From contig JAJDXE010000004.1 in NCBI GenBank assembly GCA_022825265.1, positions 42,343 through 106,342 of the forward strand: a stretch of 64,000 nt of DNA, written 5' to 3'. This DNA comes from Dehalococcoidia bacterium (lineage in GTDB: Bacteria; Chloroflexota; Dehalococcoidia; Bin125). Each line of letters begins with the position of its first letter. Position 1 is the first letter of the stretch. The notes under the pieces were generated by a model. That model was not told the origin of the DNA, did not search any database, and saw nothing but the letters and a program-made list of their open reading frames with translations. Positions 37,306 through 63,928 of the stretch are shown one piece after another. A program made the position numbers and the translations under genes.

Positions 37306-38553
37306 TCAGAACGGTGGGGCCTTGTGCGACTCCACCTCCGCGATCGCCGACTCTTCGTAGCCGAGCTCTGACATTAGTTCCGCAGTGTGCTCACCCAGGT
37401 CGGAGAACATGTTCTTGGCCGTTCCCGGAGTCCGGCTCAGACGGGTTGGAATGCCCGCGACCCGGCGTCGGCCGACGTGGGGGATGTCCTTCTCGACGAT
37501 GTATCCGTTGACCAGCGCCTGCTCGTCGTCGAGGACCTCTTCGTAGCTCTGGACGCGCTGGGCCGTCGCGCCGTCTGGGTGGATGTCGAAGAACTCCTGC
37601 CACTCGTCGGAAGTGCGTGTCTTCATCATCTCGGCGACGTACGGACGGACATCCTTGACACGGTCCATCGCGTCCTGGTCGCGAAACGGATCGCGTCCCT
37701 CGCGGTGGTTCCAGCGCGGGTCGTCGGCCAGCTCCGGGTTGCCGCCGTGTTCGCAGAACTCGCGCCAGGTTTCGTCCTCGCGAATGCCCATGCAGAAGGC
37801 GACGCCGTCGGACGCTTCGTAGATCCCGGTCATCGCCGAGACGATGGGATGAAACGCGCCGTCGCGAGTGGGTAGATGGCCCGTTGCCGAAGTGTGGTTG
37901 ATCTCCCAGGCCTGCATCCAGATCATCGCGCCGTAGGAGGAGGTCTGAACTTTCTGGCCGAGGCCGTCGCGCTGGCGCGCGACCAGCGCGGTGAGGATGC
38001 CCATTGCGAGCGCCATCGCGCCGCCGGTATCGGCGATGATCGCGCCGGGGATGAGCTGTGGGTCGTCGGGCGTGCCGGTGACGCCGGCAATGCCGCTGCG
38101 CGCCTGCGAGTACTGATCGCTCATCCGGTTCTCGCGGGCCGGTCCATCCGGTCCGAAGCCATTGGCGGTGGCGTAGACGAGGCCGGGATTGCGAGCGGAG
38201 AGGCGCTCGTAGCCCATGCCGATGCGTTCGAGCGCAGGTTCGCGGAAGTTGCTCAGGAAGACGTCGGCGCTGTCGACTAGCTTGTCCACCAGCTCCAGCC
38301 CGATCTCGGTGTGGATGTCGACGCAGACCGAGCGCTTGCCGTGCGACGCGCCGATGAACTGCGTCCCGACCGACTCCGGCGGCAGCTCGTTGTTCGCTCC
38401 GCGATACCAGCGGTTGGCGTCGCCCATCGGCGGCTCGACCTTGATCACGTCCGCCCCCATGTCCGAGAGGAAGCCGCCCGCTGCCGGTCCCTGCACTGCG
38501 ATCGATAGCTCAACGACCCGGATGCCTTCGAGCGCTTCCATCTGATCCTCCAA
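37306..38553 (-). CDS. Family-III CoA-transferase (CaiB/BaiF), single domain.
   Basis: 415 aa. N-terminus LEGIRVVELSIAVQGPAAGGFLSDMGADVIKVEPP. Confidence 0.8.
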   Translation of the reverse strand: MEDQMEALEGIRVVELSIAVQGPAAGGFLSDMGADVIKVEPPMGDANRWYRGANNELPPESVGTQFIGASHGKRSVCVDIHTEIGLELVDKLVDSADVFLSNFREPALERIGMGYERLSARNPGLVYATANGFGPDGPARENRMSDQYSQARSGIAGVTGTPDDPQLIPGAIIADTGGAMALAMGILTALVARQRDGLGQKVQTSSYGAMIWMQAWEINHTSATGHLPTRDGAFHPIVSAMTGIYEASDGVAFCMGIREDETWREFCEHGGNPELADDPRWNHREGRDPFRDQDAMDRVKDVRPYVAEMMKTRTSDEWQEFFDIHPDGATAQRVQSYEEVLDDEQALVNGYIVEKDIPHVGRRRVAGIPTRLSRTPGTAKNMFSDLGEHTAELMSELGYEESAIAEVESHKAPPF

Positions 38554-38584: not shown

Positions 38585-41023
38585 ATGCCAACGCGTGCTC
38601 CCGTGTTGGATGTTGTTGTTTCCAGAGGTGGATTCGTGAACTTGCCGCTACACGATGTCCGAGTGCTTGACCTGTCCGATCATCGGGCAGCTCTCGGCAG
38701 CAGGATGCTGGCCGACCTCGGCGCCGAGGTCACGATGGTGGAGCCGCCGGGCGGGAGTTCGATTCGGCATCTCGCGCCGTTCGTCGACGATCAGCCGTCG
38801 CTCGACGGCAGCTACCAGCATCTCTACTTCAACGTCAACAAGCGCTCCGTCGTGCTCGACTGGCGAACCAGAGAGGACATGGAGCGACTGCTCGAACTGG
38901 TTCAGGCGGCCGACATCCTGATCGAATCGAACCAGCCGGGCGAGTTTCCGGTCGCCCAGGTTCGCGCGGCGAATCCGCATCTAATCGTTGTCTCGGCGAC
39001 GCCGTACGGGTCCCGCGGTCCAAGATCCAGCTGGCGCGCAACCGACCTGACAACCACGGCCGCCGGCGGACTGCTGCAGATCAGCGGCGAGCGCGACGAT
39101 CCACCGGTGCACGGCGCGGCGTTTCCCGGTCACACGATGACCGGACTGACCATCGCCTCATCGGCGATGACGGCGCTGCACGGTCGTGATCGGACACCCG
39201 GTCAGCCCGGGTGCCAGATCGATATCTCAATGCAGGAGGCGACCTCTCTGCAGGTCGTCCAGACATCCAATCCCAACATCTGGCGCTGGCGTGGGGAGGC
39301 GCCGTATCGGCCGGCGCTCTCGCAGGTGATTCGCTGCGCCGACGATCGGTGGATGGCCTGTAACATCTCGCCGAACCGGCTGCCCGAGTTCATCGCCATG
39401 CTGGACGAAGCCGGCGTCGAGCACCATCTCGATCCCGACAACTGGGAAGTCATCCATCGCGGCGACCGCGCGGCCTGGCAGTACCTCGAGAATCCGCTGC
39501 AAGACCTGGCCAAGGACCTGGCTGCCGTCTGGCCGCGACAGCAGCTGCTGACCCGACTCTGGGAAGCCGGCATGCCTGCCATGCCCACGCTGCGCTTCAG
39601 CGAGTTCGCCGAGACTGAGCACTATCCAAGCTCAGGTCAGTTCATTGATGTCGAGACACCGGCAGTCCGCAAGTCGTTGAGCTACTCGCGCAGCCCGCTC
39701 GATCCGGTGCAGTCGCCGCTGCCGATGCGGCCTGCCCCACAGCTCGGAGCCCACGACCACGAGTCTGACACGGTGAGGGGTGAACGCTCTACGGAGCCGC
39801 CGGGCAAGTTCCCCGACATGCCGTTGGCGGGCATTCGCGTCCTCGACCTGACCTGGGTTGCCGCTGGTCCGCTCACAACCCGGCTAATGGCCAACTTCGG
39901 CGCCGAGGTGATCAAAGTCGAGTCCAGCGGCGAGCGCATGGATCCGCTGCGGGTACAGCCGGTCAACGGCGAGTTCAACTTCGACCTTCCGGACCTGTAC
40001 AACGAGGCCAACACGGGCAAGAAGTCGCTGACGCTCAACCTGGCCGATGAGCGAGGCAAGCAAGTGCTTCGGGAACTCGTGGCTCGCTGCGACGTGATGG
40101 TCAACAACTACTCGGCCGGTTCGCTGGCTCGTATGGGATTCCCCTGGGAGGAACTGCGGCAAATCAACCCGCGTCTGATCAGCGTCCACCTGCCCGGCGT
40201 CGGCGGCGATAGCCCCTGGCGGCCGCTGCGCACGCTGGGCAATCTGCTCAAGGCGGCGGCGGGGATGAACTTCCAGATGGGCTATCCGCATCAGCCGCCG
40301 CGAGGCATGGGGGTCGCGTATCCCGACTTCACGACGCCACACGTCGGGGTGACGGCGATCCTGTCGGCGCTGCGCGCGCTCGAAGAGATGGGTGAGGGCC
40401 GAGAGATCGAACTGAGCCAGCTCAGCGCGACGGTTGCCTTGCTCGGCGCGCAGTGGATGCAGTTCGATCAACTCGGCGAGGACCTGCCGCGAATCGGTAA
40501 CCGCGATCCAAACATGTGCCCGCATGGCGTGTTTCCCTCGCAGGGAGACGACCAGTGGGTCGCGATCGCAATGGAGTCCGACGGCCAGTGGCCGGCATTC
40601 GCGACGGCGATTCGCCGTCCAGACTGGGCGGAGCAGTCGGAACTTCAGTCGTTGTCCGGCAGGCAGGCTTGCGAGGATGAGATTGAAGCTGCGATCGCTC
40701 AGTGGACTAGCGAGCTCAGCAAGTGGGACGCCGCCGAGCAGATGCAAGCGGTGGGCATCGCCGCCAACGCGGTCGAGGACCTGCGCGACATGATGGATAT
40801 CGACGAGCACTTCCGCGATCACTACCAGCGGGTCGAGCAGCCCTCGCATCCTGGCTTCGGCATCTGGGTTGATCGACCGCCGTGGGAATTCGCCCATCTG
40901 GAACCGCGAGTGATCGAGCGCTCGCCGATGCTGGGCGAGCACAACGAAGAGATCCTGAGCGGGTTGCTCGGCAAGACCGGGGATGAGATCGCCGAGCTGA
41001 TCGCGGCTGGTGTCGTCGGTTGA
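38585..41023 (+). CDS. Duplicated-domain family-III CoA-transferase (two CaiB/BaiF modules in one 812 aa chain).
   Basis: Module 1 begins LPLHDVRVLDLSDHRAALGSRMLADLGAEVTMVEPP. Module 2 begins MPLAGIRVLDLTWVAAGPLTTRLMANFGAEVIKVES. A ~60 aa linker separates them. Confidence 0.7.
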   Translation: MPTRAPVLDVVVSRGGFVNLPLHDVRVLDLSDHRAALGSRMLADLGAEVTMVEPPGGSSIRHLAPFVDDQPSLDGSYQHLYFNVNKRSVVLDWRTREDMERLLELVQAADILIESNQPGEFPVAQVRAANPHLIVVSATPYGSRGPRSSWRATDLTTTAAGGLLQISGERDDPPVHGAAFPGHTMTGLTIASSAMTALHGRDRTPGQPGCQIDISMQEATSLQVVQTSNPNIWRWRGEAPYRPALSQVIRCADDRWMACNISPNRLPEFIAMLDEAGVEHHLDPDNWEVIHRGDRAAWQYLENPLQDLAKDLAAVWPRQQLLTRLWEAGMPAMPTLRFSEFAETEHYPSSGQFIDVETPAVRKSLSYSRSPLDPVQSPLPMRPAPQLGAHDHESDTVRGERSTEPPGKFPDMPLAGIRVLDLTWVAAGPLTTRLMANFGAEVIKVESSGERMDPLRVQPVNGEFNFDLPDLYNEANTGKKSLTLNLADERGKQVLRELVARCDVMVNNYSAGSLARMGFPWEELRQINPRLISVHLPGVGGDSPWRPLRTLGNLLKAAAGMNFQMGYPHQPPRGMGVAYPDFTTPHVGVTAILSALRALEEMGEGREIELSQLSATVALLGAQWMQFDQLGEDLPRIGNRDPNMCPHGVFPSQGDDQWVAIAMESDGQWPAFATAIRRPDWAEQSELQSLSGRQACEDEIEAAIAQWTSELSKWDAAEQMQAVGIAANAVEDLRDMMDIDEHFRDHYQRVEQPSHPGFGIWVDRPPWEFAHLEPRVIERSPMLGEHNEEILSGLLGKTGDEIAELIAAGVVG

Positions 41024-41055: not shown

Positions 41056-42018
41056 ATGCCGAAGTACGTGATGTTGCCGCCGATCGACGATGACATCCGC
41101 GAGTGGGCTCAGCGGATGCGCGAAGAGATTCCGGGCTTGGATGTCGTGGTTGTGGAAGATGAGACGGACGGTCCGCAGGAATTGGCCGACGCGGACGGCG
41201 CCTACGGCTGGGTTCCGCCCGAGGTGCTGCCCAATGTCGAGCGGTTGCGACTGTTGCAGAATCCGTTCGCCGGACCACCGGTGGGCTGGTACTACCCGGA
41301 GCTGGCTGAACATTCCGTGACGGTCAGCAATCCCCGAGGTATCTATTCCGACCACATCGCCCACCACATCATGATGTACATGCTCGCGCTCTCGCGCGGG
41401 CTGCCCTACTACTCGGCCGCGCAGGCCGAGGGTCGCTGGGACACGCGGGCTCGCAAACACGGATACGTCGACCTGACCGAGTCGACCGTGCTGATCAACG
41501 GCATTGGCGGGATCGGTTCGGAGGCCGCGCGCTTGTGTTCGGCGTTTGGTTGCCGAGTGATCGGCGTCGATCCAAGTCCGTACGGTGAGTTCGAAGGTGA
41601 CCTCGTTCCGCCGTCGGAGCTTGACGCCCGCCTGCCCGAGGCCGACTTCGTCGTCACCACGGTTCCACACACGCCCGAGACCGAGTTCATGTGGAACGCC
41701 GACCGCTTCGCAGCGATGAAGGACACGGCATACTTCATCAACATCGGCCGTGGCATGACCTGCAAACTCGATGACCTGGTCGCTGCCCTCGACGACGGTG
41801 AGATCGCCGGGGCAGGCCTGGACGTGTACGAGATCGAGCCGCTGCCCGAGGGCCATCCGCTCTGGCAGATGGAGAACGTGATCCTGACGCCGCACATCGC
41901 GGTCGCCAACGCAGTGAACATCCCCGAGCGACGCTTTGAGTTGATTCTTGAGAACGCGCGGCGGCTCGTTGAGGGTCGCGATTTCGTTAACGTCGTCGAC
42001 AAGGAGAAGTGGTACTAG
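41056..42018 (+). CDS. D-isomer-specific 2-hydroxyacid dehydrogenase family protein.
   Basis: NAD-binding GIGGIGSEAARLCSAFGCRVIGVD and the catalytic R/E/H arrangement. Confidence 0.8.
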   Translation: MPKYVMLPPIDDDIREWAQRMREEIPGLDVVVVEDETDGPQELADADGAYGWVPPEVLPNVERLRLLQNPFAGPPVGWYYPELAEHSVTVSNPRGIYSDHIAHHIMMYMLALSRGLPYYSAAQAEGRWDTRARKHGYVDLTESTVLINGIGGIGSEAARLCSAFGCRVIGVDPSPYGEFEGDLVPPSELDARLPEADFVVTTVPHTPETEFMWNADRFAAMKDTAYFINIGRGMTCKLDDLVAALDDGEIAGAGLDVYEIEPLPEGHPLWQMENVILTPHIAVANAVNIPERRFELILENARRLVEGRDFVNVVDKEKWY

Positions 42019-42054: not shown

Positions 42055-43107
42055 ATGAAGATCGTGGAAATGTACGGCGATTCGCGCGTGGGAGTGGTCG
42101 AAGCCCCTGAACCTGAGCCGCGCGACAACTGGGTCGTGGTCAAGGTGATTGCGAGCACGATCTGCGGCACCGAGGCGCGAACCTACCAGTACGGCGACAG
42201 CACGTTCAACTCGCACTCCTACAACTCTGGCCATGAGGCCGCCGGGATCGTCTGGAAGGCCGGGCCGACGGCCAAGATTGCCGAGGGAACCAGAGTCGCG
42301 TTGATTGCGCACATGGGCGAGCAGTGCAATCAGTGCTTCTACTGCTACCAGGGCCTCTGGCTGCTGTGCACGAACCTGACCGAGGGCGGCGAGGAGTACC
42401 TGGGCACGCACGCGCAGTACATTATCCGGCCCGACAGTCACTGCATCCCGATGCCCGATGACGTGCCGTTTGAAATCGGCTCGATCCTGGTCGACGCCGT
42501 CGGCACGCCCTACCGCGCGATCCGCCGGCTGGACGTGAATGGATTCGACACGGTGCTGATCACCGGTCTGGGTCCGCTGGGGGCGTCGGCGGCGATCATT
42601 TGTGAGAAGCTCGGCGCCCGCGTGATCGCGAGCGAACCTGCCGAGTATCGCCGCAGCCTGGCTCGCGAGTACGGGGTCGACGTCGCGATTGATCCCATGT
42701 CGGAAGACGCGCTGGAACGGGTGATGGATCTCACTGATGGCCGCGGGCCCGACGTCGCGCTGGACTTCACCGGCTACACCGAGCCGCAGATGCTCTGCGT
42801 CGACTCGGTCAGGGTCGGCGGACGGGTCGGCTTCATCGGTCTCAAGTACGACGAGACGCCGGACGGTCCGGTACCGCGACCGACACCGGTGACCGTCGCC
42901 GGTCATTTGCTGCCCAAGGAACTGACCCTGATCGGAAGCTGGAGCGTCGCACCGCACGAGATGTTGGAGTTGTACGAGCTGGTCCAGAAGGGTCTACCGG
43001 TCGAGAAGCTGATCACGCACCGGTTCAGCATCGACGAGGCGCAGGAGGCGTACGAGACGGCATTCAATCAGCGCGGCTGCAAGGTGATCATCGATCCGTG
43101 GGCATGA
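42055..43107 (+). CDS. Zinc-dependent medium-chain alcohol dehydrogenase (threonine/sorbitol-DH-like).
   Basis: GHEAAGIV zinc ligand region, structural-zinc Cys cluster CNQCFYCYQGLWLLC, and GLGPLG NAD motif. Confidence 0.8.
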   Translation: MKIVEMYGDSRVGVVEAPEPEPRDNWVVVKVIASTICGTEARTYQYGDSTFNSHSYNSGHEAAGIVWKAGPTAKIAEGTRVALIAHMGEQCNQCFYCYQGLWLLCTNLTEGGEEYLGTHAQYIIRPDSHCIPMPDDVPFEIGSILVDAVGTPYRAIRRLDVNGFDTVLITGLGPLGASAAIICEKLGARVIASEPAEYRRSLAREYGVDVAIDPMSEDALERVMDLTDGRGPDVALDFTGYTEPQMLCVDSVRVGGRVGFIGLKYDETPDGPVPRPTPVTVAGHLLPKELTLIGSWSVAPHEMLELYELVQKGLPVEKLITHRFSIDEAQEAYETAFNQRGCKVIIDPWA

Positions 43108-43116
43108 TGGAAACGC

Positions 43117-45633
43117 CTAGCGAATCACCTCGTCGACGAGCAACTGGGTGAACTCTTCCTCGCTCAGGCCGAGTTCCTGCCGATAGACCTGCTCGTTGTG
43201 CTCTCCGAAGAAGGGCGCACGGCGGATCGGCAAACGCTCCCCGTTCCAGAGGAACGGCTGGTTCTGAGCCATGAATCTGATTCCGACCGGGTGATCGAAC
43301 TCGTGGAAGAAGCCCTGCATCGACGGATCGGTGTCAACCAGGTCCTCAATGTCTTCGTTCGGTCCAGCCGGTACCCCGACCGCTTCGAATGAGGCAGTCG
43401 CCTGCCACACGCCCTGTCCGCAGGTCCACGCTGTGATCGCTGCCTCGATCTCGTCCTCAGCGGCCTTGCGCCCAGCCAGCGTGCGCAGATCGTCGCGCGA
43501 AGCCAGGTCGTCGCGACCAATCACACGGCAGATCTCCAGCCAGTCGACCGTGTTCCGCGCCGACAGCGCCAACCAGCGATCATCCCCTGCGCAGCGGAAC
43601 AGTCCGTGCGGAGACATCTCAGGCGAGCGATTGCCGCGTCTTGGCGACAACTCACCGTTGGCAAGCTGCTCGATCAGCTCCGTGTCGAGCAGGTGGATGC
43701 CAGCCTCGTACTGAGGAATCTCGATCTCCTGCCCGACCCCGGTGCGATCACGCTGGATCAGCGCCGAAATGATCGCCGTCACCGCCAGCGGGCCGAGCGT
43801 AAAATCGGTATGCAGCAACACACCGGTCGGCTTGCGGTCGGCAGCGCCGGTGTGGGCGGCCAGTCCGCAAAGCGCGACCACGCTATTCCCGATCCCCTTC
43901 CACGACGCCTTCGGACCCCAGGTCCCCATCACCGGCAGGCTGCACACAACGATCCGAGGATTGATCTTCTTCAGGTCTTCAAACCCCAGCCCCAATCGCT
44001 TCATCACGCCGCCCGTGAAGTTGTCGGTTACGACATCCGACTCGCGGATCAGGTCGTAGGCAACCCGAAGTCCGTCGGGCGCGCCGAGGTTGAGATTGAT
44101 GCTGCGCTTGTCGGTGTTGCAGTCCTGGAAAAACGCGCCGGTCTCAATCGTCGGCGGATCATGCGCAGGCAGCGCCACGCGAAGCGTGTCGATCCGGGCG
44201 TCGGACTCAACCTTGATCACATCCGCGCCGAGGTTGGCCATCAGCTCCGTCGTCAAGGGCCCCGCCGCCTGCCAGCAGAAGTCGATGACGCGAATCCCCT
44301 TGAGCGGCAGGCTGTCTCGATGGGCTGAGGACCTAGGCCGCGATCCATTTGCTCCCCCCTCTGGGGGGAGCTGTCGCGAAGCGACTGAGGGGGGTCCCGC
44401 CGCCGCTGCGGTACGGCGATTCGATCCCGCAACCAACCCACTGCCAACCAAATCGTCATATTCCGCAGAATCCAGACCAAGCAACTCCGACAGCACATTC
44501 CACGTATCCGCGCCCAACACCGGCGCCGGCCGGCCGACCGGCTCATAGCCGGTCGAGTGGATCGGCAGGCGCGGGAGATCGATCTCCCGCTCGAACTGAG
44601 GATGCTCAACCGAGAGGAATGCCCCTCGCTCATGTAGATGCGAGTCCTCGATGATGTCGCGGGCTGAGTTCACCGGCACGGCCAGGAACCCCCGGGACTG
44701 ACCCTCGTAGCACAGCTCCTCCCGATCCACCGAGGCGCAGGCTCGCTGAAACGCCTGGTGAGTCTCGCCGCCCCACTCCGGGATGTAGATGTCGCCCGGA
44801 TACTCCGCTCCGATGATTCCGTCGTAGCCCGCCCGCTCATACAGCCACTGTCCGAAGGCCGCCCAGCGTTCGTGCGTGTTCGGAGTAATCCCGAACGTCA
44901 GCCACCGACCGTCCCTGGCCTGCAACAGCGAAGAAATATCGCCCCCCGGACGAAACGCCTTCTCGCCCATCTGCCGCCACATGTTCTCGTTGGCGAAATG
45001 GATCGTGGTCGAGAGAATCGCTTCCTGCAGCGAGATGTACGCATGACTCGCGCGGACGCCGTTGCGCCGGTCGTAGAGCATCGCCACGCCGGTCGCCGCC
45101 GCGACCTGGCTGGCCTGCTTGTAAGCCAGCTTGCCCGCCGGATAGTCGGGCGCGACCTCAGGAAAACCCAGGCCCTCCATCAGACCACCGGCGGCGACGC
45201 CGACAATGTCAGACGCTGGCAGTCCCTCGCCGCCGCGCCGCGTCACCACGTCAATCACGCCCAGGTGCGGATGCACGCGCTGCAACCGTTCGCGGTCATA
45301 GAAGCGGCGCACGTCTGCATTCTTGTCCAACGGCGCGAGCACAACATCGGCGGCATCAAGCAGCCGATCGATCAGATCCCAAGCCCCCGGAGCATCGAAG
45401 TTCAGCGCCAGGCTGCGCTTGCCTGCGTTGTAGAGCAGATGCCGCAGCCCGCTCTCAATATCCGTCCCGTCGTCCAGATGCGGCCCGTTGATTCGCAGCG
45501 CGTCGCCCGTTGTTGCTTCAACCCGGATCACATCCGCGCCGAAGTCCGACAGCCAGCGAGCGCCCAGCGCCAGGCACTCGTCGCTCAGGTCGATCACGAC
45601 CGAGCTCGCCAGCGGAAGATCGGATAGCGCCAT
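43117..45633 (-). CDS. Duplicated-domain family-III CoA-transferase (838 aa), paralog of 38585..41023. A REP element is embedded in its inter-domain linker.
   Basis: Module 1 begins VVIDLSDECLALGARWLSDFGADVIRVEA. Module 2 begins LPLKGIRVIDFCWQAAGPLTTELMANLGADVIKVES. The linker ...AAAAGPPSVASRQLPPEGGANG... is encoded by the repeat at 44349-44400. Confidence 0.7.
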   Translation of the reverse strand: MALSDLPLASSVVIDLSDECLALGARWLSDFGADVIRVEATTGDALRINGPHLDDGTDIESGLRHLLYNAGKRSLALNFDAPGAWDLIDRLLDAADVVLAPLDKNADVRRFYDRERLQRVHPHLGVIDVVTRRGGEGLPASDIVGVAAGGLMEGLGFPEVAPDYPAGKLAYKQASQVAAATGVAMLYDRRNGVRASHAYISLQEAILSTTIHFANENMWRQMGEKAFRPGGDISSLLQARDGRWLTFGITPNTHERWAAFGQWLYERAGYDGIIGAEYPGDIYIPEWGGETHQAFQRACASVDREELCYEGQSRGFLAVPVNSARDIIEDSHLHERGAFLSVEHPQFEREIDLPRLPIHSTGYEPVGRPAPVLGADTWNVLSELLGLDSAEYDDLVGSGLVAGSNRRTAAAAGPPSVASRQLPPEGGANGSRPRSSAHRDSLPLKGIRVIDFCWQAAGPLTTELMANLGADVIKVESDARIDTLRVALPAHDPPTIETGAFFQDCNTDKRSINLNLGAPDGLRVAYDLIRESDVVTDNFTGGVMKRLGLGFEDLKKINPRIVVCSLPVMGTWGPKASWKGIGNSVVALCGLAAHTGAADRKPTGVLLHTDFTLGPLAVTAIISALIQRDRTGVGQEIEIPQYEAGIHLLDTELIEQLANGELSPRRGNRSPEMSPHGLFRCAGDDRWLALSARNTVDWLEICRVIGRDDLASRDDLRTLAGRKAAEDEIEAAITAWTCGQGVWQATASFEAVGVPAGPNEDIEDLVDTDPSMQGFFHEFDHPVGIRFMAQNQPFLWNGERLPIRRAPFFGEHNEQVYRQELGLSEEEFTQLLVDEVIR
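44349..44400. repeat. REP-family palindromic unit (gctcccccc-tct-ggggggagc ... gaggggggtcccgc) located inside a coding region.
   Basis: Direct read. It is homologous to the intergenic copy at 49211-49285 and is translated in-frame on the minus strand. Confidence 0.55.
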
Positions 45634-46406
45634 CAGCCCAGAGTAGATTCGTACGGGTGTTGGCGATACAGATCGCTCATCCGGTGAGTGATCAGCTGCA
45701 TCCGCAGGTCGTCATCGAGATGCGGCCACAGCGACCGATTCATCGATTCCTTGACCACGCCGAAGTAGCCGTGCCGCTCCCGCCCCATCGCCGCCAGACG
45801 GTTGGCCAGCTCATCCACTTCCTCGCGCAGCTTGCCCGGCTCGGCCACGCTGGTCACGAGACCCAGCTCCGCCGCCTCCGTCCCCGAAATGAACCGATCG
45901 TCGAGGATTAGCCGCGTCGCCTGCTTGAGCCCGACGTACTTGGGCAGAAACGCCGTCGCCGGGATCACCATCCGCAACTTCGCGTCCGGATCCGCGATCG
46001 CGTAGTCCGAGGCCAGCATCAAATCGAACCCCGAGCCCATGCAATAGCCCTGCACCTGCGCGATCACCATCTGCGGAATCCGCCGGAGCAGCGACTGCAT
46101 CCGAAAGTACGGATGCCGCTCCAGGTTGAACGCGGCGATGTGCGGAGCGTGATACGGGTTCTTCCACGGGTAGTCGGGAATCGATCCGTCCCCGCCCTCC
46201 GACACGTCATCGCCCGAGCAGAAGGAGCGTCCCTCACCAGCCAGCACCAGAACCTGAACCGCCGGGTCGCGCCCGACCCGGTTGATGACCTCGATCATCG
46301 CGTCGCCGACCTCGGTGTTGATCGCATTGTGTCGCTCAGGTCGGTTGATCGTCAGCCGGGTGATCGGCCCCTCCTCAACAATGAGTTCGCTGTGTTCGTT
46401 GGACAT
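45633..46406 (-). CDS. Enoyl-CoA hydratase/isomerase family protein.
   Basis: 257 aa. …LTINRPERHNAINTEV… and QGYCMGSGFDLMLASD are crotonase motifs. Confidence 0.8.
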   Translation of the reverse strand: MSNEHSELIVEEGPITRLTINRPERHNAINTEVGDAMIEVINRVGRDPAVQVLVLAGEGRSFCSGDDVSEGGDGSIPDYPWKNPYHAPHIAAFNLERHPYFRMQSLLRRIPQMVIAQVQGYCMGSGFDLMLASDYAIADPDAKLRMVIPATAFLPKYVGLKQATRLILDDRFISGTEAAELGLVTSVAEPGKLREEVDELANRLAAMGRERHGYFGVVKESMNRSLWPHLDDDLRMQLITHRMSDLYRQHPYESTLG

Positions 46407-48041: not shown

Positions 48042-49199
48042 ATGACCACCGCGACCAACAGCAAAGACCCCGTCGTCGTCATCATCCAGTTGACCGGCGG
48101 CAACGACTACATGAACAGCGTGGTGCCCTACGCGGACGGGTACTACAACGACGCCCGTAACGGCGAGCTCTGCATCGGCGAGGACCAGGTCCTCAAGATC
48201 GACGACCACTTCGGCTTGCACCCGACGATGGCGCCGCTGAAGGAGCTCTACGACCAGGGCGAGATGGCCCTGATCCACGGCGTCGGTTACCCCAACTCGC
48301 CGCGATCGCACTTCCGCTCAATGGACATCTGGCACACCTGTGAGCCCAACAAGGTCGGAACCGAGGGCTGGGTCGGCCGCGCGATCCGCGACCTCGATCC
48401 GACCGGCGAGAACCCCGTCACGGGTGTGCATATCGGACAGGGGTTGCCGCGCGCGCTGGTCGTGCCGGGTGTGACCGTGGCGTCCGTCGCCGACCTGTCG
48501 ACCTACGGTCTGCTGACCGGCATCGAGCAGCAGCGGCAGCGCGAGAAGATGCTCGAGCGGTTTGTCAACATGTACGGCCGCGCGATCGGCACTGGCTACG
48601 TCCAGGAGTACCTGGGCCGCACGGGACTCGACGCGCTCAAGGGCGCCGACATCCTCAAGGAGGGCCTGGGCCGCTACGAGACATCGGTCGAGTGGGGCAC
48701 CGAGCAGATCTCTCGCAGTCTCAAGGACATGGCCACGATTCACTGCGCCGACCTCGGCACGCGCGTCTTCTACACGCAGTTGATCGGGTTCGACACACAC
48801 GCCAACCAGAAGCCGGTCTTCGAGAAGTTGTGGACCGACCTCTCACGGGCGATCTCGGACTTCTGGGACGACGTCAAGGCCCACGACCGCGCCGACAACG
48901 TGATCATGTTCCTGTTCACCGAATTCGGCCGCCGGGTGCGGGACAACGGCTCCGGCTCCGACCACGGCGCCGGCGGCGGTTGCTTCGTGATCGGCCCGCA
49001 TGCCGTTGGCGGCATGCACGGCGAGTTCCCCAGCATCAACCCCAGGGACCTTGAGCAGGGCGACCTGGTTCCCAACCACGACTTCCGCGGGGTCTACTCG
49101 ACGCTGCTCGAGGACTGGATGGGCCTCGACGCCAAGCCAATCGTTGACGGCGAGTTCGAGAAGCTCAGCTTCATCGAGCCAGTCATGGCGACTGCCTGA
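48042..49199 (+). CDS. DUF1501-domain protein (sulfatase/alkaline-phosphatase-like fold).
   Basis: The N-terminus VVVIIQLTGGNDYMN and GSGSDHGAGG are typical of DUF1501. It lacks the usual Tat signal. Confidence 0.7.
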   Translation: MTTATNSKDPVVVIIQLTGGNDYMNSVVPYADGYYNDARNGELCIGEDQVLKIDDHFGLHPTMAPLKELYDQGEMALIHGVGYPNSPRSHFRSMDIWHTCEPNKVGTEGWVGRAIRDLDPTGENPVTGVHIGQGLPRALVVPGVTVASVADLSTYGLLTGIEQQRQREKMLERFVNMYGRAIGTGYVQEYLGRTGLDALKGADILKEGLGRYETSVEWGTEQISRSLKDMATIHCADLGTRVFYTQLIGFDTHANQKPVFEKLWTDLSRAISDFWDDVKAHDRADNVIMFLFTEFGRRVRDNGSGSDHGAGGGCFVIGPHAVGGMHGEFPSINPRDLEQGDLVPNHDFRGVYSTLLEDWMGLDAKPIVDGEFEKLSFIEPVMATA

Positions 49200-49210
49200 G
49201 CATTTCCCAG

Positions 49211-49342
49211 GAGCTCCCCCTCTGGGGGAGCCTGCCCCACACTCGATGCGGGGCTGTCGCGGAGCAACTGAGGGGGCTCTCCGCGTCAATTGTCAGGTCG
49301 GCCCCCTCCGTCACTTCGTGACACCTCCCCCAGAGGGGGAGG
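49211..49342. repeat. Compound REP-like element: two perfect hairpins (gctccccc-tct-gggggagc and acctccccc-aga-gggggaggt) flanking a GC-rich core.
   Basis: Direct read. Homologous to the copies at 44349, 56759 and 63803. Confidence 0.55.
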
Positions 49343-49358
49343 TCTTTGAGGAGCAGCC

Positions 49359-50381
49359 ATGCTGACCACGACCGTTGCCGGGCGCACCTGGCATTTCGAC
49401 CACTCGATCGGGCATTTCGTCGGCCCGCAGGGCTATACCTACCCGACTCCGATTGCGATGACGCCTGCCGGCACGATGTACGTCGCCGACATCGGCCTGG
49501 CCGAGTACTCAGGCGCGGGCGGCCTCGGCTCGAAGATCTACAAGCATCGGATCGAGGACGAGTTCCTCGGCGAGATGGGCGCGGGCGACCTCAAGTGGCC
49601 CGAGGGCCTCGCGCTCGCCGCCGACGGATCGGTCTGGTGCGCCGACGCCTTCCACCACCGCATTTTCGGCTACGACGCCGAAGGCTCGCCGATCGGCGAC
49701 TGGGGCGACTTCGGCGACGGCGACGGTCAATTCAATCGGCCCTCCGGGATCGCCTTCGACGCTGACGACAACCTACACGTCGTCGACAGCCACAATCACC
49801 GGGTGCAAACGTTCACCAAGGGCGGCGAGTTTCTCGGTTCCTGGGGCACGCACGGCTCCGACGAGGGACAGCTCAACCAGCCGTGGGGAATCTCATTCGA
49901 CAACGAGGGCGCGCTGTATCTCGCCGACTGGGGCAACGATCGCGTGCAGAAGTTTGCTCCCGACGGCGAGTTCCTGGGACGCTTTGGCTCGCGTTACGAG
50001 GACATCGGCGTCGACGACGGCGGCAGCCTCAAGCGTCCGGCCGATGTCGCGGTCGACAGCGTCGGCGACGTCTACGTCTGCGACTGGGGCAACCGCCGGG
50101 TCCAGATCTACTACCCGGACGGCGACATCATCTGCAGCCTCCAGGGCGACGCGCATGAGTTCTCCAGTGCAGCGGCGAAAGTCATGGAAGTCAATATGGA
50201 GTACGCCCAGGCCTTCCGCCGTGTCAATCCGGTCGAGTTGATCAAGTTCGGCATCTTCGACCGTCCGCGCGGCATCGCCATCGACGGCCAGGACCGGATC
50301 GCGATCAGTGACGGGGGCCGCGGCCGGGTGCAGGTCTACCACAAGGATCACGACTACCTGGTCCCGCAGTTCAATGCCTAG
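49359..50381 (+). CDS. NHL-repeat (six-bladed beta-propeller) protein.
   Basis: Repeated ...NRPSGIAFDADDNLHVVDSHNHRVQTF... and ...NQPWGISFDNEGALYLADWGNDRVQKF... blades. GAGGAG RBS at 49347. Confidence 0.7.
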   Translation: MLTTTVAGRTWHFDHSIGHFVGPQGYTYPTPIAMTPAGTMYVADIGLAEYSGAGGLGSKIYKHRIEDEFLGEMGAGDLKWPEGLALAADGSVWCADAFHHRIFGYDAEGSPIGDWGDFGDGDGQFNRPSGIAFDADDNLHVVDSHNHRVQTFTKGGEFLGSWGTHGSDEGQLNQPWGISFDNEGALYLADWGNDRVQKFAPDGEFLGRFGSRYEDIGVDDGGSLKRPADVAVDSVGDVYVCDWGNRRVQIYYPDGDIICSLQGDAHEFSSAAAKVMEVNMEYAQAFRRVNPVELIKFGIFDRPRGIAIDGQDRIAISDGGRGRVQVYHKDHDYLVPQFNA

Positions 50382-54779: not shown

Positions 54780-54842
54780 TCGACCCGAAGCGCGAAGCCC
54801 TTCTAGACCCGGGTGACGCGGAGCGAGAACAGAAGGAGACGT

Positions 54843-56738
54843 ATGGAACGCAACTATTGGTCACGGATGAGGCGGCAGCGGATGAGCCGTCGATCCTTGC
54901 TGCGCGCGAGCGCCCGGGCAGGTGTGGGCGCCGCAGGTCTGGCGCTCGTCGGTTGTGGCGACGATGATGACGACGATCAGCAGGCCGCTGCGCAGGTCCA
55001 ACAGCAACAGCAGGCGATGCAGCAGCAGGCCGAACAACAGGCCATGCAGCAGGAGCAGCAGGAAGCTCCCGCTCAGCAACAGCAACAACAGCAGCAGGCG
55101 GCCGTCGCCCAGGCGCAGGACCAGGCGATGGTCGACAGCCAGGGCAACACGATCCAGACCGGCGGCGTCTTCAAGCGCGCAGCCGCATCGCAGCTCACGC
55201 TGATCCGCTTCCCCTGGAACTCGGCCGGCAACAACGGCACCATCGACCCAACCGGCTACATGTACAACTGCCTCACGCAGTACGGCGGCGTCCAGCTCGA
55301 CGAGACAGCCAACCGCTTTTGGGAGTACGCCAACCCCGACTGGGAGATCAAGCCCGATGTCGCCGCCGGTTGGGAAACGCCCGACAACCTGACCTGGATC
55401 TTCGACATCAAGCCCAACGTCGTCTTCCACGACGGTCGCGCCTTCACCGCCGACGACGCGGCGCACAGCTACGAGGCGATCCGCGACCAGGGCGTTTCCG
55501 GCGGCGGTTCACCGGCCTACAACCTGGGCAAGGTGATCGCCGGCACCGAGGCGATCGACGACTCAACGATGCGACTCAGCCTGGGCGAGCCGCGCGGCTT
55601 CACCGGCGCGCTGACCGCCTACGTTCGCATGGGTCACCCCGAAACTGCCGGCTCCGCCACCGCGCCGGCGCTCGACGTGGCGCGCAACGAAGAGGCCGTG
55701 CTGATCGGCACCGGCCCCTGGCGCTTCGACACCGACAGCTACGACCCCAACACCGGTTGGCGTCTGACGCCCTTCCCAGAGAGCCACATGGGCGCGCCCA
55801 ACATGGACGAGATCACCTACACGATCTTCTCCGACGCCGACGCCATCGGTATCGCCCTCGAAGCCGGCGACATCGACTCCCACAACGGCATCCCCTTCAA
55901 CAATCCCGAGACCATCGACCGGCTGATCGCCAGCGACGACCACTGGGGTTGGGCCGGCACCAGCCTCGGCGGACAGATCTTCCGCTTCGCGATCGACGTC
56001 GAGCCGACGACCGACCCGCGCGCCCGGCACGGCGTCTGGCGAATGGTCGACCAGGAGCGCGTCGTGCGCGACTACTTCGGTCCCTACGACGACGCTGGAC
56101 GACTCTTCTTCCAGCGCGGCTCGCAGGGCTACATCGAGGACCAGGACCGGCCCAACTACGACCCGGCCGAGGGCGCTAAGCTGCTCGACGCCGCGGGCGT
56201 CGGCGAAGGCAGCGTGCTGACCGCCAGCACCCTCCCGATTCGCCCCTACGCTCCGGCCCTCGCACAGTTGCTCCAGGCCGAACTCTCGACCCTCGACATC
56301 GAACTCGAGCTCGACCCGACCGAGTACAACGTCATGATCGAGAAGCAGCAGGCCGGCGACTTCGGCAACTTCCTGATCGGTTTCGGCAACTGGATCCGCC
56401 CCGAGTCCGCAGCGCTCGCCATGGTCATGCAGGACGCCCTGCACGGCGAAGGCAACGCCAAGCGCGGCGGCGACGCCAGCAACCCGATCCCGGTCCGCGA
56501 ACGTCCCTACATGGACAACTACTTCCACTGGCTCGACATGATCATCGATGTCCAGACCGGAAACCACGAGGACACCGAGGAATACTGGCGCTCGTTCAAC
56601 GACACCTTCCACGAGGTCATGTTCGCCCAGGCCATCGCGCGACAGCGCGGTGCGGAGTTCTACACCAACAGGGTCCACGTGCCCGACCCGGGCCCCACGA
56701 CCCCGAACCCGCAAACGGTCTGGCTCGAACAGACCTAA
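54843..56738 (+). CDS. ABC transporter substrate-binding lipoprotein, family 5, paralog of 31864..33786, with the same Tat/lipobox and poly-Q linker architecture.
   Basis: Signal MSRRSLLRASARAGVGAAGLALVGCGDDDDDDQQ..., then a Q-rich tract, then the SBP_bac_5 core. The start at 54843 has AAGGAG 4 nt upstream. Confidence 0.8.
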   Translation: MERNYWSRMRRQRMSRRSLLRASARAGVGAAGLALVGCGDDDDDDQQAAAQVQQQQQAMQQQAEQQAMQQEQQEAPAQQQQQQQQAAVAQAQDQAMVDSQGNTIQTGGVFKRAAASQLTLIRFPWNSAGNNGTIDPTGYMYNCLTQYGGVQLDETANRFWEYANPDWEIKPDVAAGWETPDNLTWIFDIKPNVVFHDGRAFTADDAAHSYEAIRDQGVSGGGSPAYNLGKVIAGTEAIDDSTMRLSLGEPRGFTGALTAYVRMGHPETAGSATAPALDVARNEEAVLIGTGPWRFDTDSYDPNTGWRLTPFPESHMGAPNMDEITYTIFSDADAIGIALEAGDIDSHNGIPFNNPETIDRLIASDDHWGWAGTSLGGQIFRFAIDVEPTTDPRARHGVWRMVDQERVVRDYFGPYDDAGRLFFQRGSQGYIEDQDRPNYDPAEGAKLLDAAGVGEGSVLTASTLPIRPYAPALAQLLQAELSTLDIELELDPTEYNVMIEKQQAGDFGNFLIGFGNWIRPESAALAMVMQDALHGEGNAKRGGDASNPIPVRERPYMDNYFHWLDMIIDVQTGNHEDTEEYWRSFNDTFHEVMFAQAIARQRGAEFYTNRVHVPDPGPTTPNPQTVWLEQT

Positions 56739-56758
56739 GCACCGATTCAAGCACTTCG

Positions 56759-56865
56759 CTCTCCCCCCTCTGGGGGGAGATGCCGAATGCCTGCCCCGGG
56801 CTTGGACCCGGGGGCAGAGGGGGGCTCCCCCTCGCCGAGAAGCGTTAGCCCCCTCCGGAGAAGGA
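56759..56865. repeat. Compound REP-like element (tctcccccc-tct-ggggggaga, ctgccccggg...cccgggggcag, gaggggggctccccctc) between the SBP and permease genes.
   Basis: Direct read. Its 3' half is homologous to 63893-63925. Confidence 0.55.
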
Positions 56866-56889: not shown

Positions 56890-57855
56890 ATGACCTACGT
56901 ACTCCGCCGCCTCGTCACCCAGCTGATCCCCGTCCTCTTTGTCGCCTCGATCCTGATCTTCGCCTCCGTGCGACTGATCCCCGGCGACCCGGTCGCCGGC
57001 GCCATCGGCGACGCGATGGGCAACACTGACCCCGAGGTCTACGAACAGCTCAAGGAAGAACTCGGCCTCAACAAGCCGATGTATGAGCAGTACTGGATCT
57101 GGCTGGGCCGAATCTTCACCGGAGACTTCGGCCAGTCGCTCACCGGACTGCCCGTCACCGAGATCCTCGGCAACGCCATCCCCGCCTCGGTCGAACTGGC
57201 CGGGCTGGCGATCATCATCGGCTTCACGCTCGGTCTCACTCTGGGCGTGCTCGCCGCCGTCAATCGAGGTGGCTTCTTCGACTGGTTCGCCGCCCTCTGG
57301 ACCGGCTGGAACATTGGCGTCCCCTCATTCGTCGCCGGACTGGTCTACCTGATCGTGTTCTCGGTCTGGTTCGACCTCACCCCCGTCTCCGGCCGAGTCC
57401 CCCTGACCGAGGATCCGCTCAAGGCCCTGGAACACCTCGCCCTGCCGTCCTTGGCCCTCGGTGGCATCGTCGCCGCCAACATCAGCCGCTTCACCCGGCA
57501 GTCCCTGCTCGACACCATGACCGAGGACTACATCCGCACCGCCCGCTCGAAGGGACTCACCAACCGGGCCGTCATCGTCCGTCACGCGCTGCGGCCTAGC
57601 CTGATTCCCGTCGTCACCATCATGGGACTCGAACTTGCCTCCATCCTCAGTGGCACGCTGGTCATCGAGACCGTCTTCACCTGGCCGGGACTCGGTCGAG
57701 CCCTGATTAACGCCGTCAACAACCGCGACTACACGGTCATCCAGGCCACGACAATCCTGCTCGTCTTCGTCTTTGTCGTCGTCAACCTGATCGTCGATCT
57801 CGTCTACGTCGGACTCGATCCACGTATCCGCATCGGTCAGGGTTCAGAGGTCTAG
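56890..57855 (+). CDS. ABC transporter permease (DppB-like), paralog of 33866..34801.
   Basis: 321 aa, with TM helices and ...ARSKGLTNRAVIVRHALRPS. Confidence 0.85.
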   Translation: MTYVLRRLVTQLIPVLFVASILIFASVRLIPGDPVAGAIGDAMGNTDPEVYEQLKEELGLNKPMYEQYWIWLGRIFTGDFGQSLTGLPVTEILGNAIPASVELAGLAIIIGFTLGLTLGVLAAVNRGGFFDWFAALWTGWNIGVPSFVAGLVYLIVFSVWFDLTPVSGRVPLTEDPLKALEHLALPSLALGGIVAANISRFTRQSLLDTMTEDYIRTARSKGLTNRAVIVRHALRPSLIPVVTIMGLELASILSGTLVIETVFTWPGLGRALINAVNNRDYTVIQATTILLVFVFVVVNLIVDLVYVGLDPRIRIGQGSEV

Positions 57856-62544: not shown

Positions 62545-63798
62545 ATGTCCTGGCGACCCAAGCGCATGAAATTCGGACTATTCCTCGCTCCATTCCACTC
62601 CGTCGGCGAACACCCGACCCTCGCCCTTCAGCGCGACGTGGAGCTGATCGAGCACCTCGACGACCTCGGCTACGACGAAGCCTGGATCGGCGAGCACCAC
62701 TCGTTCGCTCGCGAGATCATCTCCAACCCGATGATCTTCATCGCCGCCCTGGCTGAGCGAACCAAGCACATCAAGCTCGGCACCGGCGTCGTCTCCCTGC
62801 CCTACCACAATCCGCTGATGATCGCCGACGACCTGCTCCAGCTCGACCACATGACTCGCGGTCGCGTGATGCTCGGAGTTGGACCCGGCGCGCTCACCTC
62901 CGACGCCGTGCAGATGGGCATCGAGCCAACCACCCAGCGCCAGCGCATGGCCGAGGCATTCGACGCCATCGTCCAGCTCGCCCGGGACGAAGAGCCGGTC
63001 TCGATCGAGACCGACTGGTTCTCCTTGACCGAGGCTCGCCTGCAGATGGCCTGGTACTCCGATCCGCATCCCGAGCTCGCCGTCGCCGTCATCCTCACCC
63101 CGTCCGGACCGCAACTTGCCGGCAAGCACGGCGCCAGCCTGCTCTCCGTCGCCGGCGCCGACTCCGATGGCATGAAGCAGGTCTGGGACTGGTACGAAGA
63201 AGCCGCAACCGAGAACGGCCACGAGGTATCGCGCAAGAACTGGCGCGTCGTCACCGCGATCCACATCGCCGAGACCCGCGCCCAGGCGATCGATGATGTC
63301 CGCGCTGGATTCCTCAAGCGCGCCTACGTCGGCGACGTCCGCGATCCCGGCCGCCGCGGCGGCATCGCGCTGCAGATGGCCGACACGATCGAGGAAGCGA
63401 TCGACAAGAATATGGTCATCGTCGGCTCGCCCGACGACGCCGTCGACCAGATCGAGGCCATGCACGACCGCTCCGGCGGCATCGGCGGACTCCTCGGCAT
63501 GCACCACGAGTGGGCCTCGACCGACGCCACCAAGCGCAGCTTCGAGTTACTCATGCGCTACGTCGCCCCGAGGTACCAGGGACAGCTCGACCGCCTTGTC
63601 GCCTCCCGCGACTTCGTCGAAGATCGCCAGCTCGACATCTTCGGCGCCGGTCAGAAAGCAATGGCCAAAGCCTTCGCCGACGCCGGCAAGGACCTGCCCG
63701 AAGCCTTCCAGCAAGCCATCGCCGCGCGTGCCGAAGAAACCAACGGAGCCAGCGCCCCCTCCGAAGCCGAAGCTGAGGCCGAACCCGTCGCCGACTAG
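62545..63798 (+). CDS. LLM-class flavin-dependent oxidoreductase.
   Basis: 417 aa. MKFGLFLAPFH...GYDEAWIGEHH is the classic luciferase-like N-terminus. Confidence 0.75.
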   Translation: MSWRPKRMKFGLFLAPFHSVGEHPTLALQRDVELIEHLDDLGYDEAWIGEHHSFAREIISNPMIFIAALAERTKHIKLGTGVVSLPYHNPLMIADDLLQLDHMTRGRVMLGVGPGALTSDAVQMGIEPTTQRQRMAEAFDAIVQLARDEEPVSIETDWFSLTEARLQMAWYSDPHPELAVAVILTPSGPQLAGKHGASLLSVAGADSDGMKQVWDWYEEAATENGHEVSRKNWRVVTAIHIAETRAQAIDDVRAGFLKRAYVGDVRDPGRRGGIALQMADTIEEAIDKNMVIVGSPDDAVDQIEAMHDRSGGIGGLLGMHHEWASTDATKRSFELLMRYVAPRYQGQLDRLVASRDFVEDRQLDIFGAGQKAMAKAFADAGKDLPEAFQQAIAARAEETNGASAPSEAEAEAEPVAD

Positions 63799-63802
63799 CA
63801 GC

Positions 63803-63928
63803 CTGCTCTCCCCTCTAGGGGAGTTTCCCTAGCTATCCTCTCCCCCCTTGGGGGAGAGGACCCGACCATCCCCTTTTCTCCCCCCTTTGGGGGGGAGATG
63901 CCGCAGGCAGAGGGGGGCTCCCGGGCCT
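63803..63928. repeat. Cluster of three or four REP-like hairpins (ctcccc-tcta-ggggag, tctcccccc-ttg-gggggagagg, tctcccccc-ttt-gggggggaga, gaggggggctccc).
   Basis: Direct read, downstream of the LLM gene stop. Confidence 0.55.

Follow-up and report, generated by a model that had tools for sequence, protein, structure and literature searches.

This study concerns a 64-kb stretch of DNA (the window) from the genome of a sponge-associated Chloroflexota bacterium, and in particular a short palindromic repeat that lies within the gene of an 838-amino acid (aa) protein, in which two CoA-transferase modules of family III (CaiB/BaiF-type) are fused in tandem. The repeat belongs to a dispersed family that is otherwise found between genes, and here it is read in frame as part of the linker that joins the two modules. 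Very probably the repeat is a passenger that is tolerated in this linker, the fusion of the modules is older than the repeat, and the linker is a site at which such elements have landed and replaced one another repeatedly. To our knowledge, selfish palindromes that are translated in frame are textbook matter only for Rickettsia; the same outcome appears to be reached here with a different element, resembling repetitive extragenic palindromes (REPs), in Chloroflexota that live with sponges, and a second time in Clostridia of the gut type.

In the host protein, the Pfam family PF02515 (CoA_transf_3) was found in two stretches, with 435 bits against a gathering cut-off of 23.3 (E 2.4e-130), and most of the 120 homologues listed are full-length two-module proteins. 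The first module terminates in a conserved RPAPVLGA motif followed by two helices, the second begins with LPLKGIRVIDF, and the fold matches solved family members with TM scores of 0.8-0.93 (normalised to the target). The best structural counterpart of module 2 is a subunit of benzylsuccinate CoA-transferase, 9fn0_B (E 3.9e-64, 33-34% identity, target-normalised TM 0.93), and residues 13-99 of module 1 weakly match the other BbsEF subunit, 9fn0_A. Since the modules thus match two different BbsEF subunits, the protein looks like a covalently fused heterodimer of the BbsEF-type family. The succinyl-CoA:(R)-benzylsuccinate CoA-transferase itself (PDB 9fn0) has BbsE and BbsF as two chains of their own, whereas a repeat-encoded linker joins the corresponding modules here. 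Invariant aspartate columns occur in both modules of the alignment; module 1 has D142, and D610 is one of several in module 2.

On the plus strand, the repeat in the linker (type A) reads from position 44351 as GCTCCCCCC-TCT-GGGGGGAGC, then T, then GTCGC-GAA-GCGAC, then TGA-GGGGGG, and the predicted RNA fold consists of two hairpins with a free energy of -39.6 kcal/mol. The intergenic units of one orthologous locus (L021; loci are denoted by L numbers) also contain the tail AGCAAATGGATCG that adjoins the first hairpin, and the repeat therefore spans about 44335-44398. That this sequence belongs to the same family as the intergenic copies at 49211, 56759 and elsewhere in the window had been proposed in the original prediction, and it is borne out by a profile hidden Markov model built from 55 aligned copies out of the window and 31 orthologous loci, from which every CoA-transferase linker was excluded. 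A profile of this kind was used in place of a covariance model, as variation in loop length led MAFFT to misalign the left arm of hairpin 1. Positions 44350-44397 gave the top score in the whole window (nhmmer; E 6.8e-12, 41.5 bits, full-length match to profile positions 4-51), followed by 63875-63921 (E 1.1e-11), 49300-49342 on the minus strand, 56759-56787 and 49253-49281. For the core CTCCCCCCNNNGGGGGGAG, with at most two mismatches, the window contains five matches, spread over three sites (44352, 56761 and 63838-63878), where 0.05 would be expected. In total, about 105 copies defined by pattern were counted over the 687 kb of the window and the orthologous loci. Hairpin 2 covaries over the copies (GTCGC/GCGAC, GTCAC/GTGAC, GTCCC/GGGAC, TGCC/GGCA); 93% of its cells are paired and 41 cells are changed on both sides, a number reached in none of 500 shuffles, and in slid controls the pairing falls to 25-64%.

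A linker rich in proline and glycine might acquire runs of C and G by composition only, as the codons CCN and GGN do produce such runs. This explanation of the resemblance is so improbable that it can be neglected, since the match extends over the full length of the profile and includes hairpin 2 and the spacer bases, stretches of 39 nt at 95% and of 30 nt at 97% identity are shared with intergenic copies of other genomes, and the linkers of repeat-free outgroups have no profile match.

All copies in the window other than the one in the linker sit in short spacers with co-directional open reading frames (ORFs) on either side. The inverted pair at 49211 fills the spacer between the plus-strand ORFs 48042..49199 and 49359..50381, and the long variant of the copy at 56756 recurs in one orthologue (L024), whose linker contains it in frame. 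In the 20-kb flanks of the orthologous loci, nine stop-to-stop ORFs around copies were scanned with Pfam. Seven of these contain no known family; of the other two, one has its real gene downstream of the copies, and one is a DDE transposase in which the copy follows the last domain. One such transposase ORF (DUF772 + DDE_Tnp_1; L020 12672-14072) is located directly downstream of the CoA-transferase gene and has a type A module near its 3' end. In another locus (L021 6050-6980), about six composite units of 145 nt (type A, spacer, type B) are arrayed in tandem upstream of the gene that comes before the CoA-transferase gene, an arrangement that resembles a cluster of bacterial interspersed mosaic elements (BIMEs). 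No existing family was found for the repeat: an Rfam scan of the whole window at gathering thresholds gave tRNA as the sole match, and the E-value mode yielded only sub-threshold Whalefall-1 and miRNA-type noise. Plasmid sequences, searched by BLAST with the 47-nt element in both a near and a distant mode, gave no match, for which low-complexity masking and the short query are perhaps to blame. A protein-database search with the repeat-encoded peptides yielded no candidates, as none had three 5-residue words in common with the query. A full-text literature search for the hairpin-2 sequences found no paper, and a search on palindromic repeats in sponge Chloroflexi gave sponge-microbiome and genome papers, with no such dispersed repeat as the subject of any title or abstract.

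As was originally predicted, the repeat encodes, in frame on the minus strand, the linker between the two CaiB/BaiF modules; its translation is GPPSVASRQLPPEGGANGS, residues 413-431, and five of its six reading frames are open. In an AlphaFold model based on an alignment with 59 homologues (predicted TM score 0.93, mean predicted local distance difference test (pLDDT) 90.8), residues 407-435 form the only internal segment with pLDDT below 50, so that the repeat-encoded peptide is predicted to be structurally disordered. The ORF itself is intact in an independent ENA assembly of a different strain (L152 3001-5517), with identical linker DNA and 71 nt differences in the gene as a whole (97.2% nucleotide identity), and one continuous frame is kept in all 31 other orthologous loci, which come from species-representative genomes, several of them complete chromosomes. 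An assembly artefact can therefore be excluded for practical purposes. The C6 and G6 runs of the repeat are error-prone in some sequencing chemistries, and two separate genes or a pseudogene might in principle have been turned into one ORF when a stop or frameshift near 44300-44450 was lost by an error of assembly. However, this has hardly any probability in view of the second strain with the same linker DNA, the unbroken frame in the other loci despite very different inserts, and the packing of both modules into one confident fold. The 838-aa protein is probably made as a single chain.

The order in which the fusion and the repeat arose can be deduced from homologues without the repeat. In nine orthologues (L017, L019-L023, L026-L028) the modules are fused through an inter-anchor segment of 68-75 aa without a profile match; three of these linkers (L020-L022) are repeat-free although their flanks hold many copies. 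Homologues with 43-48% identity are also fused, through ordinary linkers. The two-module fusion is older than the repeat, and the presence of the repeat in the linker is the derived state. An alternative raised in the original prediction was that an insertion between two adjacent genes had fused them; translation of an intergenic copy flanked by two CoA-transferase genes would then have set in once the upstream stop codon was lost. Short spacers that separate co-directional genes are indeed filled by copies in the window and five of six frames are open, so read-through of such a spacer is mechanically plausible. This origin of the fusion is nevertheless very unlikely and was rejected, since the modules are already fused in the repeat-free orthologues, in the homologues with 43-48% identity and in a paralogue with 31% identity, and among the 120 homologues listed there is no split version with a repeat-bearing spacer.

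This paralogue, encoded by the neighbouring region at 38585..41023, has the same two-module layout without an intact repeat, as had been noted before, and a profile search of its own linker in the window gave no match. The original prediction regarded an 11-mer shared with the repeat core as a possible mark of a decayed copy. The 11-mer, CCTGCCCCACA, is present twice in the window, at 39731 and 49231; at 39731 it codes for P-A-P-Q of the conserved module-end motif RPAPQLGAH, which is aligned with RPAPVLGAD of the 838-aa protein. Because it lies in this conserved motif, outside the variable linker, the 11-mer is no evidence of a decayed copy and was discarded as a chance match. The idea of a decayed module itself has held up on other grounds: a type B module can be recognised in linkers of the paralogue's orthologues (L031, E 1.4e-5, with the sequence CTCTCCCCCCTCAAGCGGGGGGAGATACCGAAGGCAGAGGCGGG encoding LPPQAGGDTEGRGG; L011, E 7.6e-3; L006 and L004 by eye), and in the window paralogue this module has decayed past detection.

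Between orthologues the linker is hypervariable in both length and sequence. In the set of 32 linkers (that of the window, WIN, and those of the 31 loci), the type A repeat is found in the orientation of the window in eight (WIN, L002, L030, L011, L012, L031, L018 and L015) and in decayed form in two more (L003 and L025). Type B, CTCTCCCCCC...GGGGGGAGATGCCGAAGGCAGAGGGGGG, occurs forward in seven linkers (L001, L004, L006, L007, L008, L010 and L024) and reversed in three (L005, L016 and L013), and an unrelated palindromic element is present in those of L009, L014 and L029. In the linker of L001, four tandem units of 51 nt have expanded the segment to 134 aa. The profile confirms 18 of the 32 linkers at E <1e-3, in both orientations. 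The unrelated element is about 110 nt long (GTCCCCGCCTCCGAGCGGGGAC ... GGGTCCCCGATTGAATCGGGGACGGG), has terminal inverted repeats and is dispersed in the same genomes, also being in frame where it occurs in the linker; further copies were seen at L025 9019-9052 and L012 12676-12753.

The linker types interleave on a tree that was made without the linker, and linker content is swapped between proteins with 94-97% identity in their other parts. When the linker is left out, the identity is 94.0% between WIN (type A) and L001 (four copies of type B), 94.4% between L030 (type A) and L029 (unrelated element), and 96.1% and 96.0% between L018 (type A) and L016 (reversed type B) or L014 (unrelated element), respectively. 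One change can be followed at the nucleotide level. As compared to its sister L018, L015 has gained 180 nt, or exactly 60 codons. An element of 173 nt, whose inverted ends measure 15 nt (AGACCGATGCRCAAC), and a duplication of 7 bp, CTGGAAG, make up this difference. The element is placed inside the hairpin-1 loop of a resident type A copy, the nested insertion being located at about 11240-11470 of L015. Two more copies of the 173-nt element (L016 ~22130-22320 and L031 ~2570-2730) lie beside a C-run arm that belongs to a hairpin 1, with a matching G-run arm after the element in L016. This suggests a repeat-loop-specific transposable element, and since its copies adjoin hairpin-1 arms, resident repeats seem to attract more insertions; resident hairpins may well do so for further elements in general.

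Exchange of alleles can contribute to the same pattern. The genes of the window and of L152 are identical over nucleotides 982-2249 (1268 nt), with 43 differences in the first 981 nt and 28 in the last 268 nt. The identical tract between divergent ends covers the linker and indicates a recent recombination event that included it; the patchy occurrence of the linker types is probably due in part to the transfer of alleles.

The repeat core is also encountered far outside the clade. The exact 30-mer GGGGGAGCTGTCGCGNAGCGACTGAGGGGG occurs in at least 120 metagenome contigs with a GC content of 45-73% and unrelated flanking genes; contigs with the core came from metagenomes (L032-L151) and from viral collections (L153-L164). 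All-against-all ORF clustering of the 120 metagenome loci revealed no commonly linked gene, the largest cluster comprising six loci. One core-bearing contig encodes an NtrX-like regulator with best matches in Methylobacterium and Sinorhizobium, another has a ccmH-like ORF, and a further GC-rich one carries a head gene cluster of the phage or gene-transfer-agent type, the last two assignments being made by reading translations by eye. The core appears to have its hosts in Chloroflexota, in organisms resembling Alphaproteobacteria and in Clostridia of the Oscillospiraceae type. A near-identical core in three phyla is unusual for a REP-like element.

A second, independent case of an in-frame repeat linker is found in one of these contigs. 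In the Oscillospiraceae-type L081, at 2026-2200, the R subunit of a type I restriction enzyme (HsdR) has two tandem type A copies in frame in the linker that connects its DUF4145 domain with its HSDR_N domain, and the same linker also has a lower-GC repeat (PSPQGEG-type) with a two-hairpin layout as judged by eye. In HsdR homologues the baseline length of this segment is 62-64 aa, and in close relatives it measures 67-116 aa with a varying number and kind of repeat-derived peptides. One could go further and envisage a single cross-phylum family of two-hairpin repeats as a general source and remodeller of bacterial inter-domain linkers. The hairpins of a linker copy would then attract elements and recombination, the linkers of essential fusions would become fast-evolving and repeat-built, neighbouring genes would occasionally be welded by spacer read-through, and the near-identity of the 30-41-nt core would be a sign of a common mobilisation system that moves horizontally, or of a universal host factor by which the core is recognised. 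We consider this wider scenario unlikely, albeit worth stating.

Several observations weigh against the view that the repeat is just a tolerated passenger which landed in the linker. The window linker measures 82 aa between anchors, as compared to a repeat-free baseline of 74 aa; the difference of 8 aa is below the length of the repeat, so that the original insertion event and its boundaries are beyond reconstruction, and in the window copy of this 41-64-nt module neither terminal repeats nor a target duplication is visible. The tree on which the linker types interleave is a simple neighbour-joining tree without support values, and the single 838-aa product is predicted from the ORF. Furthermore, coding copies with the same flanks differ by a compensatory double change in hairpin 2 (GTCGC/GCGAC in L031 vs GTCCC/GGGAC in L011 and L012), which could mean that the structure is selected and not merely tolerated, and the recurrence in two paralogues may likewise reflect selection over tolerance.

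The last two points can be combined into the alternative that the repeat has been exapted, its mRNA or DNA hairpins being selected because they cause a translation pause between the modules, set the length or composition of the linker, or promote recombination by which the linker is varied. The compensatory changes that keep hairpin 2 in coding copies, the recurrence of the element in the linkers of both paralogues and in the unrelated HsdR linker, and the two stable hairpins that are predicted for the mRNA sense strand would all fit such a role. On the other hand, copies decay with no hint of maintenance in L003, L025 and the paralogue of the window, outgroups function without any repeat, and very different elements replace one another in either orientation, which fits tolerance better than a specific function. 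Moreover, the compensatory variants equal intergenic variants in the same genomes (L012 21659, L031 21558), as expected from gene conversion or fresh local insertion. Taken together, we give exaptation a small probability and prefer tolerance of a passenger. A selfish intergenic repeat in a flexible linker, as the original prediction put forward, agrees with the family membership of the copy, its predicted disorder, the repeat-free outgroups and the intact ORF in 32 assemblies.

A mechanism that would account for this tolerance starts from a dispersed GC-rich repeat, consisting of a C-run, a loop and a G-run (hairpin 1), a small covarying hairpin 2 and a second G-run, with gene spacers as its usual place. 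One copy lies inside the gene of the tandem-fused CoA-transferase, at the junction of the modules, as a derived and tolerated passenger and not as the cause of the fusion. This copy is stop-free in the used frame and the frame is kept across the linker, so the ribosome would read through, which would add some 19 residues of disordered linker rich in Pro, Gly, Ser, Ala and Arg. In close relatives this position is taken by type A, by type B in either orientation, by an unrelated palindrome, by tandem amplifications or by a nested insertion, and the entry of the 173-nt element with inverted ends into the hairpin loop of a resident repeat is the sole insertion event that can be seen directly. Frame-preserving variants would survive because selection requires both modules on one chain, and recombination between strains or with other genomic copies may spread and homogenise the linker alleles.

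The new aspects are the type of element and its host, the confinement of the observed insertions to disordered inter-domain linkers, the rapid replacement of modules and the spread across phyla. The system offers a concrete and testable route by which selfish DNA can supply and diversify the linkers of fused enzymes. There are practical implications as well: linkers built from repeats can mislead gene callers, the prediction of domain boundaries and the alignment of orthologues, and identical repeat-derived peptides will turn up in unrelated proteins.

Table 1 Features of the fused CoA-transferase gene, its linker repeat and related elements in the window
Feature	Position	Strand	Basis or remarks
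Coding sequence, 838 aa	43117..45633	-	Two CoA-transferase modules of family III (CaiB/BaiF-type) fused in tandem
Module 1, ~residues 1-400	44434..45633	-	Pfam, secondary structure, pLDDT
Inter-module linker, ~residues 401-440	44314..44433	-	AlphaFold pLDDT
Module 2, ~residues 441-838	43120..44313	-	Pfam best stretch 444-813; PDB match residues 443-837
Repeat module, type A	44335..44398	+ by family convention, read in frame on -	Profile match, shared tail, predicted fold
Hairpin 1	44351-44371		Type A copy in linker
Hairpin 2	44373-44385		Type A copy in linker
Second G-run	44389-44394		Type A copy in linker
Tail	44335-44350	as read on -	Common to intergenic units of L021
Candidate tryptic peptides of linker			TAAAAGPPSVASR, QLPPEGGANGSRPR
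Paralogous two-module CoA-transferase, 812 aa	38585..41023	+	31% identity; linker ~39755-39817
Intergenic inverted pair	49211..49345		One copy at 49211-49282 (+), into which a further hairpin is inserted; the other at 49296-49345 (-)
Intergenic type B copy with extra nested hairpin	56756..56829	+	Spacer between ORFs 54813..56738 and 56890..57855
Two intergenic copies (degenerate hairpin and full type B module)	63834..63922	+	Downstream of ORF 62545..63798

In the surroundings of the host gene, three family III CoA-transferase genes are clustered (37306-38553, 38585-41023 and 43117-45633), one with a single module and two fused, and module 2 of the fused proteins is nearest to the BbsEF benzylsuccinate CoA-transferase. 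Of the neighbouring genes, 41056-42018 encodes a 2-hydroxyacid dehydrogenase, 42055-43107 a zinc alcohol dehydrogenase and 45633-46406 an enoyl-CoA hydratase, which suggests that the cluster is one acyl-CoA catabolic locus. The window also holds repeats of other kinds. CAG/CAA-rich imperfect 27-nt repeats, presumably coding for Gln-rich stretches, are present at 31990-32145 and 54972-55085, and upstream of them a 128-nt stretch is common to both sites at 70% identity (31874-32001 vs 54856-54983). Two pairs of direct repeats with 68-78% identity, 24446-24986/25280-25820 (offset 834 nt) and 27213-28124/28286-29197 (offset 1073 nt), look like tandem gene duplications.

When the repeat is set against known systems, partial likeness to several of them is found. 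The Whalefall-1 RNA (Rfam RF01762) also has two hairpins followed by a G-rich tail, and its full model (positions 1-56) matched two window copies, but with 16.2 bits against a gathering score of 37 the match is below the family threshold and is a resemblance only. Miniature transposable elements with inverted repeats (MITEs) that form in-frame fusions, such as QMITE1 of Coxiella and intragenic ERIC/BOX elements (PMC5896051, PMC10969869), are resembled by the 173-nt element of L015 with its inverted ends, target-site duplication and 60 codons in frame. The difference is that this element, being nested, has as its target the loop of a repeat already in place instead of arbitrary coding sequence, and that the window module has no visible inverted ends or duplication.

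Likeness to REPs and BIMEs (PMC3733652, PMC3184786) is more extensive. These are short, GC-rich, imperfect palindromes of high copy number in co-directional spacers, with mosaic or tandem clusters, of which the array in L021 is the counterpart here, and the repeat family likewise consists of short imperfect palindromes in many copies that are mainly extragenic. Both also serve as insertion targets for other mobile elements, here the 173-nt element, to be compared with ISPpu9 in REPs (PMC8450116). In most REPs, one end bears a conserved tetranucleotide, GTAG or CGTC (PMC3733652); GTAG/CTAC and CGTC/GACG are absent from both strands of the 44351-44394 module. A crude scan for the HUH...Y motif of REP-associated tyrosine transposases (RAYTs) in the ORFs of ~20 kb per genome, which is a weak test, gave nothing. 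Classical REPs are moreover extragenic by definition, whereas the present repeat is translated, and its core is near-identical in three phyla.

In their effect on proteins, the closest counterparts are the Rickettsia palindromic elements (RPEs), which are dispersed selfish palindromes, many of them in frame in protein-coding genes with the host protein intact (Ogata et al. 2000, 2002, via PMC10969869). RPEs measure ~150 bp, form about ten families and reside in the reduced genomes of obligate intracellular Alphaproteobacteria (PMC10969869), while the repeat described here is a GC-rich, two-hairpin module of 41-64 nt that is mostly intergenic, lies in inter-domain linkers in the cases observed and is swapped between near-identical proteins. 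Host phylum, length and base composition of the elements all differ, a relationship in sequence is improbable, and the likeness, as set against the description in a review (PMC10969869), is one of mechanism only: both are dispersed palindromic repeats that add an in-frame peptide at positions compatible with the fold. By analogy, the linker repeat would thus work like the Rickettsia palindromic elements in functional terms, while its architecture appears nearest to that of REPs and BIMEs.

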